Of a DNA stretch of 64,000 nt, positions 1,320-63,676 are shown in pieces. Location of the stretch: IMG/VR virus record IMGVR_UViG_3300028920_000002, positions 64,001 through 128,000 of that record. One strand, given 5' to 3'. Position numbers and translations under genes: made by a program. The notes beneath the pieces were generated by a model. It saw nothing but the letters and a program-made list of their open reading frames with translations, was not told the origin of the DNA and made no database searches. Every line of letters begins with the position of its first letter. Positions within the stretch are counted from its first letter, which is position 1. This stretch comes from a virus.

Positions 1320-1336
1320 TCCGCTTCTCTTATGCC
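1320..1336 (-). promoter_or_regulatory. class-1 motif GGNATAA-N6-YGGW
   Basis: GGCATAA-GAGAAG-CGGA on minus strand; one of 19 copies. Confidence 0.7.
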
Positions 1337-1395
1337 GGTTTCTGCGGGAGAATGACCCCAACACCTCGCCACAGGCGAAACTAAGGAGCATCGAA

Positions 1396-2409
1396 ATGAC
1401 ACTCGGTTCTGGACTCATGACTGCACAGCGTCCAAAGCAGAGCCGCTTCGTTACCGGCAAGCGTGGTCTGGCCGGCGAGGTGGGCGACCTGCGCGACGAT
1501 ATTGAAGAGGAACTCAGCCCCATGGCGGCCATCGCCGTGCAAGAGTACGTCGACCCTCTGGCTACGGCAGCCAACAACCTGATGGCAGCTACGACCTCTC
1601 AGGCGGCTGAGGATGAGCTGCTGCCGGATGCCACACCGGCGACTGGTGTGCTCACGCAAGCCACCATCGACAACCTGAGCACCGGTGGGCCCCGACAGAT
1701 TCTCTTCACTGTGGCAGGTGGCACACCCGCTCATCGCGCTCCGACCGCTACCATCTACGGTACTGCTGTTGGCGGCGCGAAGACGAGCGAAACGGTGAGT
1801 CTGCCGAGTGTTGCTGGCACGGCTCTCACCGGAACCTTCTTCGTCGACATCGACCGCATCGTTCTCGCTGCAGGCAGCGGCACCGGTGCTACTGTGGCCA
1901 TCGGTCTGGGCGCTCTGCTTGGACTCAGTGCCTCAGTGGTGTCACGTGCTGGGCGCGTTGCGGTCATCCAAGAGGTGGCAGCTGGCTCAGTTGTGACCAA
2001 CGGTACTGTACTCGAGGGTGCGGATGCTGCGGCTACCGTCACTGGCTCACAGGACCTCTCCTCGGGCGGCACGCTCGGTACCGAGACGCTCATCGTCGAG
2101 GTCGATGGAGCTGCTGCTCAGACGGTGACCTTCGCCACTCCGGCGAACACCGCAGCCGTCGTGGCGGCAGTCGAGCTAGTCATCCCCGGCATTGCCAGTG
2201 ATGATGGCTCTGACCACCTGGTGCTCACCAGCCCGACCACTGGCCCCACCTCGAGTCTTGCAATCTCGGGTACCTCGCTCACCAAGCTCGGTATCACCGC
2301 TGGGTACTACCAAGGAACCAGCGGCGGCAAGGGCACCTACGCCCCCAACAGCGCGCCCAACGGCTCCAACGACTACGCGCTGTACTACGAGTACGACCCC
2401 ACCGCGTAG
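1396..2409 (+). CDS. putative virion structural protein
   Basis: AAGGAG SD before ATG 1396; Thr/Gly/Ala-rich beta-type sequence with module TLIVEVDG..TVTF..LVLTSPTTGPTSSL. Confidence 0.6.
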   Translation: MTLGSGLMTAQRPKQSRFVTGKRGLAGEVGDLRDDIEEELSPMAAIAVQEYVDPLATAANNLMAATTSQAAEDELLPDATPATGVLTQATIDNLSTGGPRQILFTVAGGTPAHRAPTATIYGTAVGGAKTSETVSLPSVAGTALTGTFFVDIDRIVLAAGSGTGATVAIGLGALLGLSASVVSRAGRVAVIQEVAAGSVVTNGTVLEGADAAATVTGSQDLSSGGTLGTETLIVEVDGAAAQTVTFATPANTAAVVAAVELVIPGIASDDGSDHLVLTSPTTGPTSSLAISGTSLTKLGITAGYYQGTSGGKGTYAPNSAPNGSNDYALYYEYDPTA

Positions 2410-2456
2410 CTATTCTTCCGGCACGCGGCGGCCATCCGCCATCCCATCCTGGCGAC

Positions 2457-2492
2457 CGAGGAGGGGAGCTTCTGGTATGTGGCTCCCCTCCT
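2457..2492. terminator. hairpin between convergent genes
   Basis: 12-bp perfect stem GAGGAGGGGAGC/GCTCCCCTCCTC between 1396..2409(+) and 2496..3227(-). Confidence 0.65.
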
Positions 2493-2495
2493 CAC

Positions 2496-3227
2496 CTATT
2501 CTGGTGCGCGGATGTGCGCCGGCACCGTGAACTCGAGCAGGATTGGGTTGAGCCAACCGACGACCTTGCGGCCCCCGCCCTTCTTCGCCCTGAGAGACTC
2601 GTCCCAGGCCCACACCTTGCCACTGCGCTGGTCGAAGAACTTCACTCCTTCACCGATGTGCTGTGACTTGATGCCACCTCGACCCCCATCGATGGTGGAC
2701 CACAACTCACCTCCGTCGATGCTGCAGTCGACGCCATCGAAGTAGAAGACGTGCTCGCTTCTGGGGGTGTTGTTGGACACATAGACGATGTCTCCTGTGC
2801 TGGGGCGCTTGCTCTTGTTCTTGCTGAGCAGGTACTCGACGAACGCCCCCTCCTTACGTCCTCGGAAGAACAAGTAGGATAGGTTCTTTCCCCGCTTCCA
2901 CTTCCTCTTCAGCCAGCCTGTACCGTTGGGGTCTGGTTCATCGAGGTCCCGGTTGAGGATTGGTCCTCGGTAACCCGCACGCTCGAGTAGGAACTGGGCA
3001 AACTCCCCACAGGTACTGAAAAGAGTGCCTGAGTCCCTCATGGGCTCAGCCCGACCCTGGCAGATTTCGATGAACTGCGGGTCGCCGACCTTGGCGTGCT
3101 TGTACATGTGGGCCACGGTCTGGATGTACTCCCGCTGGGTGTCCTCGTCGTACTCCCACAGTTTGATGCTGCGGCTGCCCAAGGTGAGGATGTCGACCCG
3201 CTTCGCGCCGGTGATTCCTGCAGTCAT
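2496..3227 (-). CDS. putative NlpC/P60-CHAP-like Cys amidase
   Basis: STCGEFAQFLL Cys helix, GDIVYV strand and EHVF His; papain-like arrangement. Confidence 0.45.
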   Translation of the reverse strand: MTAGITGAKRVDILTLGSRSIKLWEYDEDTQREYIQTVAHMYKHAKVGDPQFIEICQGRAEPMRDSGTLFSTCGEFAQFLLERAGYRGPILNRDLDEPDPNGTGWLKRKWKRGKNLSYLFFRGRKEGAFVEYLLSKNKSKRPSTGDIVYVSNNTPRSEHVFYFDGVDCSIDGGELWSTIDGGRGGIKSQHIGEGVKFFDQRSGKVWAWDESLRAKKGGGRKVVGWLNPILLEFTVPAHIRAPE

Positions 3228-3296
3228 GTTCGGCCTCCACCCTCAGTGTAACTATGGGCGTGTTCGGGTACAACAACTACGGGAGTTGGAGTAGCA

Positions 3297-3545
3297 GTGA
3301 GTGAAGAAGTCGTTCAGAAGTTCCGGTTTCTCACCCGCAACAAGCGGTGGAGCGGCTACGTTGAAGTAGCCGAGTGTGAGAAGAACGGCAGAAGCTACGT
3401 CATTTTGCGCTTGCACGTAGGCAATCGGTCAGTTCTACTTCCGAGACGCGGCCTCGAGGATGTAGTCCTAGCTCTGACTCGAGCCTTGGGAGTCGCGAAT
3501 GCCAGGTACGAACGTATCATCGAGAAGATGAACAGGAGAGAATGA
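3297..3545 (+). CDS. hypothetical protein
   Basis: 82-aa ORF, GTG start with GGAG SD. Confidence 0.65.
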   Translation: MSEEVVQKFRFLTRNKRWSGYVEVAECEKNGRSYVILRLHVGNRSVLLPRRGLEDVVLALTRALGVANARYERIIEKMNRRE

Positions 3546-3546
3546 C

Positions 3547-62038: not shown

Positions 62039-62040
62039 CC

Positions 62041-62358
62041 ATGTCGACGGTCTACGAGAACATTCCGGTCTACATGCCTCGCTACAAGTGGGTGATGCTG
62101 CGCTGCCTTCTCAAAGTAGCTGCAGACACCCTCTACGCTAGCGGTGACCACCTCATCGACGTGAGCACGCTCAGCGACGAGGAGCGTAGAGCTCTGGACG
62201 ACTCCATCAAGGAAGCGTTCGACGTAGAGGATGAACCGGTAGTACTGCTCAGGGCGCCGGATGAGCAGGACCCACTCTGTATGTACGAGATGGTAGAGCG
62301 CAGCCTGGCTTCTCAGTTGGGAGGAGACCCGTTGGAGGTGGGGCTAAAGCAAGGTTGA
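62041..62358 (+). CDS. hypothetical protein
   Basis: GGAGG SD. Confidence 0.65.
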   Translation: MSTVYENIPVYMPRYKWVMLRCLLKVAADTLYASGDHLIDVSTLSDEERRALDDSIKEAFDVEDEPVVLLRAPDEQDPLCMYEMVERSLASQLGGDPLEVGLKQG

Positions 62359-62394
62359 GTTCAAAAACGGCAATCGTGCTGGTAGACTGAGCTG

Positions 62395-63228
62395 GTGAAC
62401 TACTCCAGCATGCGGGACGAGTTTTACAAGATTGCCAAGGAGAAGAAGCCGCCGGTGCCCGGTGAGCGAGATGTACTGCTGGGTACCGGTGGATGGCTTG
62501 GCTCTAAGGCCATGAAGGCGGTTGGCAGAAAGGGCAACGCCGCTCTCGTTGAAGAGCTCATGAACGAGACTCCCACCCCGTCAGACGTTCGCACCAGGCA
62601 AATCAACCTCTTCAAAAAGATGGTCGGTGGTTCCGGTGTGGACGTCTACGGCAAGCAGCTTACTGGTCACGGCCCAGCTGCCATCCAAGCTCTGAAGACT
62701 AAGCCGGCCATGCACATCGCCCCAGAGATGATTGGCATGCCGGGCATCATCGCTCATGAGCTCGGCCATGTTGACGTAGCCAAGGGTCGCATCGGCAAAT
62801 TCGTCGGGGGCCTTCCCGGTGTGCTTGGTGGGATGGCTGCAAGAAAGGTGTCTCCCTACACAGCACTAGCTGGCGGACTACTCACTGGAGCCAGCAAGGA
62901 AGAGGATGAAGGGAAGCGGCGTACCGGCACGGCGATGGCTGCGGCCCCTACTGTGTTGGGCCAAGGTCAACAGTTGGCCGATGAGGCCGGGGCAAGCTTG
63001 TACGGTCTGCGTCGTCTACGCCAAGCAGGGGCTACTCCGGCGGAGATGTCGGCAGCCCGCAAGCACATGACCAAGGCGTTCGGCACCTATGGCACCGCTG
63101 CGCTGGTACCTGCGGGTACTGCTCTTGGGCTGTACGGGATAGGTCGTGGCGCGGCAGGTATGGTGCGCAGGCGAGCACATCTGAATTCCAGAGCTAGAGA
63201 AGAAGCGCCCCCGGACGCTTCTTCCTAG
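62395..63228 (+). CDS. K-x-A family protein with HExxH metallopeptidase motif
   Basis: MRDEFYKIA N-terminus; IIAHELGH; later E in DEAGAS; hydrophobic Gly/Ala helices; TG-G-TAGACT 6 nt before GTG. Confidence 0.6.
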   Translation: MNYSSMRDEFYKIAKEKKPPVPGERDVLLGTGGWLGSKAMKAVGRKGNAALVEELMNETPTPSDVRTRQINLFKKMVGGSGVDVYGKQLTGHGPAAIQALKTKPAMHIAPEMIGMPGIIAHELGHVDVAKGRIGKFVGGLPGVLGGMAARKVSPYTALAGGLLTGASKEEDEGKRRTGTAMAAAPTVLGQGQQLADEAGASLYGLRRLRQAGATPAEMSAARKHMTKAFGTYGTAALVPAGTALGLYGIGRGAAGMVRRRAHLNSRAREEAPPDASS

Positions 63229-63230
63229 CC
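63200..63230 (+). terminator. hairpin + CTAGCCC
   Basis: GAAGAAGCG..CGCTTCTTC then CTAGCCC. Confidence 0.65.
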
Positions 63231-63231
63231 C

Positions 63232-63648
63232 TCAGTTGTTCGGGCTGTGTGCCTTGGCGGCGTCCCCGACAACCTTCTCCTCTACTGGGCGAATGATGCG
63301 CTGAAGTAGGCCGCCCACCATTCGGCGAGCCTCCTCATCACGAACTGCCTCGTACGCCTCTACTGCCTCCTTGGTGAAGTTCGGGCAGCCGACCGTGAAC
63401 AGGGTGCGGGCAGCCTCGAGCAGTAGGGCCTCTGCCACCCTGTGCGCCGCCCAGGACATCGCCGCATCATGCGTCTCCTTGTCGTCGGTCTCGTCGTCCA
63501 CCATGTCCTCACAGTCCTCGACCATCTTCGAGAGCTGATTGCTCAGCGCAGTGCGGATGTGGACCCCGAGCTTGACGACGAACTCCTCGCTCGTCGCTTC
63601 GGTGAGTTTGCAGGTGGCGCAGTCACACTTCTTCTCTTCGTTGGACAT
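63232..63648 (-). CDS. hypothetical protein
   Basis: GGAGG SD and class-1 motif. Confidence 0.7.
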   Translation of the reverse strand: MSNEEKKCDCATCKLTEATSEEFVVKLGVHIRTALSNQLSKMVEDCEDMVDDETDDKETHDAAMSWAAHRVAEALLLEAARTLFTVGCPNFTKEAVEAYEAVRDEEARRMVGGLLQRIIRPVEEKVVGDAAKAHSPNN

Positions 63649-63659
63649 ACTTCCTCCTT

Positions 63660-63676
63660 TCCACTGTTGTTATTCC
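63660..63676 (-). promoter_or_regulatory. class-1 motif
   Basis: GGAATAA-CAACAG-TGGA. Confidence 0.7.

Follow-up and report, generated by a model that had tools for sequence, protein, structure and literature searches.

We examined the 64,000 nucleotides (nt) from position 64,001 to 128,000 of virus record IMGVR_UViG_3300028920_000002, hereafter called the window. They belong to a complete phage genome of 186,723 bp that has direct terminal repeats and a guanine-cytosine (GC) content of 60.5%, and that comes from a marine sediment metagenome assembly. Our subject is a short repeated motif, GGNATAA-N6-YGGW, which together with its upstream extension we call the class-1 promoter. Comparison with related phages makes it likely that this is a lineage-specific promoter of the sigma-70 type. 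It would be read by a sigma factor that the phage encodes at 39178-39963, probably together with a phage RNA polymerase, and would drive non-structural and mostly orphan genes. Positions are those of the window unless marked as genome positions.

A pattern search of both strands of the window gave 18 exact matches to the motif, whereas 100 dinucleotide-preserving shuffles averaged 0.19 matches and never gave more than 2. An earlier note on this DNA, made from the sequence alone, had listed 19 copies and had named enrichment over shuffled sequence as a check. We recovered the 18 exact copies at the same positions and on the same strands. The remaining copy, at 53208 on the minus strand with the variant ending TAGA, was confirmed with a weight matrix derived from the exact copies, on which it scored 35.8 bits. 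The whole genome contains 29 exact matches. With an extended weight matrix (the motif plus 24 upstream bases, used with cut-offs of 20 and 19 bits), 27 sites in the genome scored above 20 bits and 28 scored above 19 bits, and no site scored above 20 bits in five shuffled genomes. Three exact matches lie inside genes and are probably chance matches (14.8 bits at genome position 5452; below 12 bits at 23166 and 186249). These data show that the motif is real and highly non-random.

The position of the motif relative to genes is also strongly biased when judged by our own gene calls, which are based on codon usage. All of the high-scoring sites (27-28) are intergenic and face a downstream gene or RNA, except that the sites at 24409 and 39155 fall inside over-long start calls. 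The motif has the same orientation as the genes in 9 of 9 same-strand gaps and points outward to a gene in 10 of 10 divergent gaps, and back-to-back pairs are found in three gaps. These counts agree with the earlier description of copies at the 5' side of genes or structured RNAs, with only the site at 51775 being ambiguous, and they provide the genome-wide test of intergenic and orientation bias that had been suggested. At most sites the distance from the predicted start to the next start codon is 6-62 nt, and four class-1 transcripts would start with GGAGG, which is a ribosome-binding site. One site (genome 143071) is 24 nt 5' of a transfer-messenger RNA (tmRNA) gene. Because a copy stands ahead of a gene for this RNA, the signal should be transcriptional rather than translational. 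The tmRNA gene occupies genome 143109-143475 (L054:15109-15475) and its tag peptide is ANDNATPALAVDKAA.

Most of the genes that follow the motif are orphans: homologs in relatives were found for 4 of 19 of them, versus 128 of 237 genes overall. Such orphan-rich downstream genes are typical of early, host-directed genes, and the idea that the motif mostly precedes small accessory genes is supported. The broader claim that it is a promoter-like, phage-specific signal gains its support from comparative genomics.

To describe the element beyond the search pattern, we aligned the flanks of the 29 copies, with position 0 at the first G of the GG, and scored only bases outside the pattern. Upstream, C was found at -22 in 22 of 29 copies, G at -20 in 17/29, C at -19 in 19/29, A at -18, -17 and -16 in 21/29, 25/29 and 16/29, and T at -3 in 19/29. 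Downstream, 23/29 copies had A at +8 and all 29 had a purine at +9, and T was never seen at +7 (0/29). Taken together, these bases extend the consensus to c-GCAAA, 15 nt, GGgATAAs-Ar, 3 nt, g-TGGA. The earlier note had seen no obvious -35 box, but a C-n-G-C-A-A-A block is conserved 15 nt 5' of the GG. With the -35 hexamer cGCAAA at -21 to -16 and gATAAs at +2 to +7 from the first G, the spacer is 17 bp. The two blocks are thus held at the fixed spacing of a sigma-70-type bipartite promoter (17 ± 1 bp), and the -35 bases played no part in the selection of the sites.

In promoter coordinates, the geometry would place the GG at -14/-13, make gATAAs the -10 hexamer with A-11 and T-10 (ATAA spanning -11 to -8), and put T-1 and G+1 at the TG of TGGA. 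A start at the GG of YGGW fits sigma-70-type geometry, and a pyrimidine-purine step (T then G) is conserved at the expected start place in five genomes. The A at -11 is invariant in the class-1 sites of this phage. Position -7 is C, G or A and is T in 0/29 copies, so that the T-7 of a sigma-70 -10 element is missing. This speaks against a housekeeping sigma but not against a reader of the sigma-70 family. The -35-type box, the fixed 17-bp spacing and the GG at -14/-13 point to a promoter laid out for a full-length sigma that has regions 2, 3 and 4, and they do not allow the analogy with the -10-only late promoters of T4 that had been drawn before.

We then compared the motif with that of related phages. 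When 10 kb of the window was compared with cultured phages by megablast, no match was found. A search for related loci with the single sigma sequence also found nothing, but it succeeded with an alignment of homologs. More than 100 sigma homologs were found on phage-sized contigs and 27 loci were retrieved; the closest relative of the sigma is 76% identical and lies on a 5-kb contig. The cultured relatives are Salmonella phage Arash (OQ632216) and Vibrio phages D69, D148 and D181. We made an unbiased count of 7-mers upstream of genes in five genomes of 45-64% GC, namely those of Arash, D69, two uncultured relatives with complete genomes and the phage studied here. In every one of them GGGATAA, GGTATAA or GTTATAA ranked first or nearly first. 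The five alignments have one layout, CAA(A/T)A, 15 nt, G(G/T)(G/T)ATAAG, 5 nt, T then purine, and T at -7 was found in 0/29, 0/21, 0/21 and 2/38 sites across the compared genomes. Of the 41 copies in Arash, 38 lie between genes, 37 of them on the strand that carries the non-structural genes, and in D69 all 22 of 22 intergenic copies are on one strand. In five more distant relatives, with sigma proteins about 30-52% identical, the counts for the core versus a reversed-pattern control were 18/1, 12/1, 25/5, 42/19 and 18/10.

The motif also precedes the sigma gene in relatives L003, L005, L006/L007 and L029, and it is found before gp9-gp10 of Arash. A sigma and a beta-like polymerase domain were present in 12 of 12 relatives, and the motif, sigma and polymerase co-occur in all 13 genomes examined. 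The sigma of Arash is 26.5% identical to the 261-amino acid (aa) sigma over 90% of the query, and that of D69 is 44% identical over a 32% segment. The lineage consists of phages of about 180-200 kb that include Arash and D69 (the mReC group), and the phage studied here has the feature that marks mReC or Arash-like phages, namely a bacterial-type beta plus beta' encoded by a tailed phage.

The 261-aa protein itself gave weak Pfam matches to sigma region 3 and region 4, both below the cut-offs, and Pfam sigma region 2 was not detected in it. It matched phrog_351 at 7e-10. Its best curated families were SigB/F/G and FliA/WhiG, far below the cut-offs: the score was 28.1 bits for TIGR02980 (cut-off 234) and 19.7 bits for TIGR02479 (FliA/WhiG; cut-off 189.6), which does not place the protein in the FliA class. 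A profile of 32 sigma homologs matched solved SigA structures at 7.8e-12. A structure model had a predicted local distance difference test (pLDDT) score of 86.8, and its top fold matches were SigB, SigA, SigD, WhiG and FliA, all with a probability of 1.00 over about 235-315 columns. By these profiles and this model, the protein is a three-domain sigma factor of the sigma-70 family. Judged by sequence similarity, its gene lies among virion-protein genes both in this phage and in Arash. The neighbours of the sigma gene at 39984-41144 resemble the gp4-gp17 virion block of Arash, and a 626-aa protein encoded at 29167-31047 resembles the Arash structural protein gp6.

The phage also encodes a polymerase. 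A protein of 2151 aa, outside the window at genome 23816-30271 (L051:3816-10271), is a fused beta plus beta' RNA polymerase of the bacterial type, with the domains Rpb2_6 (2.7e-63), Rpb2_3, Rpb1_1, Rpb1_2 (4e-27) and Rpb1_5 (4e-19). It is 32% identical to Arash gp206, and the level is similar (about 32%) for the polymerase of Arash and D69 in general. Its gene heads a virion gene block and has a TACAAT box upstream, not the class-1 motif. Alpha and omega subunits were searched for in this phage and were not found. A T7-type polymerase was not detected in a search whose positive controls gave no match. Both of the readers proposed in the earlier note, a sigma factor and a phage RNA polymerase, are accordingly present in the genome. 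In Arash virions, proteomics found polymerase beta as the most abundant protein, and beta' and the sigma gp10 were also found (PMC10585845).

From these comparisons we propose that the 261-aa phage sigma reads a promoter of the form cGCAAA / 17 bp / GG / gATAAs / TGGA. Its partner would most probably be the fused beta-beta' polymerase of the phage and not the host core enzyme. The hosts (Salmonella, Vibrio and a sediment bacterium) and the GC content differ among these phages, and yet the promoter keeps its odd features, namely the missing T at -7, the G at -14, the CAA-type -35 and the TG start. The reader should therefore be phage-encoded, and the 261-aa sigma and the beta-beta' polymerase are favoured because they are the only conserved candidates. 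In its GG at -14/-13 and its A-rich -35 the motif is similar to published promoters of group-3 sigmas, which is consistent with the nearest curated families of the sigma. About 28 short units would be driven, comprising non-structural and mostly orphan genes, the tmRNA and the sigma gene, and the promoter ahead of the sigma gene would lead to positive autoregulation. Because polymerase and sigma are found in Arash virions, early firing seems likeliest, with an injected holoenzyme acting on class-1 promoters on arrival. The start site, reading protein, partner enzyme and timing given here are all predictions from comparative genomics. We put forward more tentatively, as a possibility that may well prove wrong, that the holoenzyme is self-contained: a single-chain beta-beta' without alpha or omega, plus sigma, that is packaged, injected and starts transcription without any host polymerase subunit.

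Several observations weigh against this proposal. The co-occurrence of motif, sigma and polymerase could mirror common ancestry. Since a class-1 motif also precedes the sigma gene, another promoter or delivery in the virion would be needed to start the loop. Several large gene runs are without a class-1 promoter, and a second, -10-only class of promoter-like sites exists (see below). Packaging in the virion has been shown for Arash only, whose sigma is 26.5% identical to the 261-aa sigma. Lastly, the -10 part of the Arash and D69 motif, TGnTATAAG, is similar to the E. coli extended -10, and host sigma-70 is a possible reader there. This last point, with five of six matches to TATAAT plus the extended TG, leads to the alternative that the sites are host-type early promoters read by host RNA polymerase with the housekeeping sigma, and that the phage sigma and polymerase serve later promoters. 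In model phages, early regions read by the host typically have short units of small orphan genes behind strong, near-identical promoters, and the sigma gene here sits behind such a promoter, much as the early or middle sigma genes of SPO1 and T4 do; both points would suit this explanation. However, T at -7 is the key base for housekeeping sigmas, and it is nearly or entirely absent in the four site counts given above. In addition, -12 is G in the GC-rich phages, the -35 is GCAAA or CAATA and not TTGACA, the same odd features are seen in phages of unrelated hosts, and a scan of the window for sigma-70 consensus promoters gave no enrichment, with matches below expectation. We consider a host housekeeping sigma unlikely on these grounds. 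We have less confidence still in a host alternative sigma of group 3 (FliA, SigB or SigF type), which we regard as quite improbable. Published group-3 consensus sequences are indeed similar to the class-1 motif, such as TAAAGTTT-N11-GCCGATAA for Salmonella FliA (PMC4866697), and RGGXTTRA-N14-GGGTAT for B. subtilis SigB and TAGGC/GGTAA for Synechocystis SigF (PMC2532724). But a group-3-like sigma of the phage's own explains this resemblance directly, it would be unusual for about 28 promoters to depend on a conditionally expressed host sigma, and the motif is conserved over hosts with different sets of alternative sigmas.

The sites could also have a role other than as promoters, either in RNA processing or in binding a regulator or a replication protein, for which the motif would be a variant DnaA box, TTATCCC. 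Read as its reverse complement, TTATCCC, the motif has one or two mismatches to a DnaA box, and four copies lie close together at the strand switch of 23672-24729. The copies are, however, spread over 130 kb, strictly oriented with the downstream gene and bipartite at a fixed spacing without dyad symmetry. They form back-to-back pairs between divergent genes, and they lie 6-60 nt before start codons and before the tmRNA gene, and we give this explanation very little weight. When the copies were compared with a DnaA-box cluster or origin (clustered TTATCCACA 9-mers, AT-rich and free in orientation), the comparison failed, since they are genome-spread, gene-oriented and bipartite. An archaeal TATA/BRE reading was ruled out by the variable distance to start codons, the Shine-Dalgarno sequences, the phage sigma and the tmRNA. 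The phage encodes a second sigma-like protein of 159 aa (genome 129205-129684; L054:1205-1684) in a promoter-rich part of the genome, and its match to Sigma70_r4 is significant (1.9e-9, above the Pfam cut-off). That this protein reads the motif in place of the 261-aa sigma seems to us scarcely credible, because it has no homolog in four motif-bearing relatives (G5, G2, Arash and D69) and, with neither region 2 nor region 3 detected, lacks an evident means of recognising a -10. The protein may act as a minimal sigma or as a transcription factor private to this phage.

The sites of the window and the genes that they would serve are as follows.

1320-1357, minus strand: class-1 promoter, core 1320-1336, predicted start 1322; the weakest copy (19.4 bits), without a good -35; precedes a 276-aa open reading frame (ORF) at 486-1316, with the ATG 6 nt past the predicted start.
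23672-23709, minus strand: class-1 promoter, predicted start 23674; a 36-nt leader opening with a hairpin leads to a 233-aa ORF at 22937-23638, which is among the few promoter-driven genes with a homolog in a motif-bearing relative.
24409-24446, minus strand: class-1 promoter, -35 AGCAAA, predicted start 24411; a 76-aa reading frame lies 39 nt downstream.
24573-24610, minus strand: class-1 promoter, -35 CGCAAA, 39.7 bits, predicted start 24575; precedes a 137-aa ORF at 24142-24555, with the GTG 20 nt downstream.
24713-24750, minus strand: class-1 promoter, -35 CGCAAA, predicted start 24715; the transcript would open with a strong hairpin.
37574-37611, plus strand: class-1 promoter, predicted start 37609; the transcript would open GGAGG; precedes a 219-aa ORF at 37618-38277, with the ATG 9 nt downstream.
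39134-39171, plus strand: class-1 promoter, 39.2 bits, predicted start 39169; the ATG of the sigma gene is 9 nt downstream.
39178-39963, plus strand: gene of the 261-aa sigma factor, assigned to the sigma-70 family with domains 2, 3 and 4.
41164-41201, plus strand: class-1 promoter directly 3' of a GC-rich hairpin, predicted start 41199; precedes a 74-aa ORF at 41210-41434, with the ATG 11 nt downstream.
45944-45981, minus strand: class-1 promoter, member of a back-to-back pair, predicted start 45946; a 5' hairpin leader leads to a 75-aa ORF at 45674-45901.
45960-45997, plus strand: class-1 promoter, partner of the 45944 site, predicted start 45995; the ATG of a 69-aa ORF (46006-46215) is 11 nt on.
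50028-50065, minus strand: class-1 promoter after a hairpin and TTAGC, predicted start 50030; precedes a 198-aa ORF at 49412-50008.
50563-50600, minus strand: class-1 promoter, predicted start 50565; precedes a 153-aa ORF at 50088-50549.
51775-51812, minus strand: class-1 promoter after a hairpin and TAGC, predicted start 51777; candidate targets are a structured leader, a small ORF and a non-coding RNA.
52586-52623, minus strand: class-1 promoter after a hairpin and TTTTAGC, predicted start 52588; precedes a 102-aa ORF at 52265-52573.
53208-53245, minus strand: class-1 promoter, the TAGA variant (35.8 bits), predicted start 53210; a structured leader of about 100 nt leads to a 74-aa ORF at 52882-53106.
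53751-53788, minus strand: class-1 promoter with the best score (43.0 bits), predicted start 53753; precedes a 136-aa ORF at 53326-53736.
54767-54804, minus strand: class-1 promoter, member of a back-to-back pair, predicted start 54769.
54783-54820, plus strand: class-1 promoter, partner of the 54767 site, predicted start 54818; the ATG of a 137-aa ORF is 6 nt on, and this ORF heads a plus-strand gene run at 54824-61549.
63660-63697, minus strand: class-1 promoter, predicted start 63662; precedes a 138-aa ORF at 63232-63648.

The earlier note had stated that the motif often comes right after a terminator. This is partly correct, in that about 10 of 28 sites have a clear upstream hairpin, but neither folding nor a terminator scan revealed a general signal. 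The mean upstream folding energy was -19.3 kcal/mol versus -17.7 kcal/mol for random genomic 62-mers, which is no difference, and a simple terminator scan of the window showed no enrichment. At several sites a GC-rich hairpin, often with a GNRA-like loop, is followed by a short T-rich run and TAGC just 5' of the -35 box (50065-50110, 51812-51850, 52623-52660, 53245-53290, 53788-53825 and 41130-41165), and TTTTAGC is found at the equivalent place in Arash and D69. The hairpin with TAGC may be the terminator end used in this lineage. Many class-1 transcripts would also have a stable hairpin at the predicted +1 (23650-23674, 24680-24715, 45910-45946 and 53165-53210; genome 23700-23740 and 143085-143107), as is likewise seen after the motif in D69 and Arash. 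This hairpin may be a 5' stabiliser.

A second promoter-like class consists of TA[C/G]A[A/C]T hexamers that stand alone, 8-45 nt ahead of a start codon. It was found in 10 of 82 upstream windows, where 0.8 were expected, and mainly ahead of structural genes and the polymerase gene. The sites are at 12760 (TACAAT before 12786) and before 62395 (TAGACT) in the window, and at genome 23800, 37500, 144120, 145215, 147335 and 176610. The counterpart in Arash and D69 is (c)TAAAATA(ta), with 12 and 11 upstream windows versus 0.7-0.8 expected. GGTACAA was considered as a second motif and dropped, having just 3 hits near starts in each of three genomes. On the plus strand, a sigma-70-like sequence, TTGGCA, 17 nt, TAGACT, is present at 50609-50637, and 51052-51205 holds two tandem tRNA-like genes, toward which the nearest class-1 promoter (51775, minus strand) fires. 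The transcript from the site at genome 130918 (genome 130870-130920; L054:2870-2920, minus strand) has a tRNA-like T-arm and acceptor end (GGTTCGACTCC...), and ARAGORN called no tRNA there.

The closest parallels to this promoter are in Arash and D69, which have the same promoter layout before non-structural genes, with tCCAATA, 15 nt, tGGTATAAGtAAaGTGTAA in Arash and tTCAATA, 15 nt, tGTTATAAG in D69. They differ from the phage studied here in having T and not G at -12, in the GT of D69 where GG is found at -14/-13, and in a start of TGTA rather than TGGA. Their polymerase is split, with beta and the front part of beta' in one chain and the back part of beta' in another; here it is a single chain of 2151 aa. 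The Arash paper does not mention promoters (PMC10585845). The mReC phages (Weinheimer and Aylward, 2020; PMC7481178) are similarly uncultured large tailed phages that have a bacterial-type beta/beta' with strong Pfam matches, and the words "sigma", "promoter" and "virion" are absent from that paper. Our literature search found no paper describing the class-1 promoter.

Promoters of group-3 sigmas (FliA/sigma-28, SigB and SigF) are like the class-1 promoter in having two parts, with about 14-15 nt between a short A-rich -35 and the G-rich start of an extended -10, and their cores are (C)GATAA or GGGTAT/GGTAA. The sigma gene is also autoregulated in the case of Synechocystis SigF, as is predicted here from the motif ahead of the sigma gene. 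The consensus nevertheless differs in every block, and the likely partner here is a phage polymerase and not the host core. Compared with FliA/sigma-28 (TAAA, 15 nt, GCCGATAA), the phage motif is CAAA, 14 nt, sGGgATAA; with SigB, SigF and SigG it has GG(G) at -14 to -12 in common and the remainder differs.

The consensus sequences of T4, SPO1 and phiEco32 are well established and can also be compared. Unlike class-1 promoters, T4 late promoters have no -35 element, and the phage consensus GGgATAAs is not TATAAATA. The general principle is the same, in that a phage factor redirects transcription to a private consensus in T4 late transcription (TATAAATA, gp55/gp33), SPO1 (gp28, gp33/34), and phiEco32 and 7-11 gp36 (PMC8948821). 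In T4, SPO1 and phiEco32, however, the sigma works with the host core, whereas this phage also brings the catalytic subunits. In this respect it is like phiKZ and AR9 (PMC7598289, PMC9209446), which encode multi-subunit polymerases and package one form of them to serve phage-specific promoters early in infection. Those polymerases differ in consisting of four or five very divergent chains with no sigma-70-family subunit and in using unrelated promoters. Phage multi-subunit polymerases are described as having no homologs of alpha, sigma and omega in a 2026 review (PMC13282480), and sigma-encoding jumbo phages are described as lacking a polymerase (PMC7824862).

The Arash-like lineage has both a sigma and a polymerase, together with a defined -35/-10 promoter that is stable over Salmonella, Vibrio and sediment-bacterium hosts. 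If the holoenzyme is indeed self-contained, as tentatively suggested above, it would be the first demonstrated case of a multi-subunit polymerase of a phage that works with a true sigma and a classical -35/-10 promoter. The defined consensus makes the system directly testable in cultured Arash. The system bears on whether a one-chain bacterial-type core can work without alpha and omega, and on how a sigma that does not use T-7 opens DNA. A promoter and polymerase pair that is independent of the host could also find use as an orthogonal tool for expression, and in annotation the motif is a marker of non-structural transcription units in hundreds of uncultured phages.

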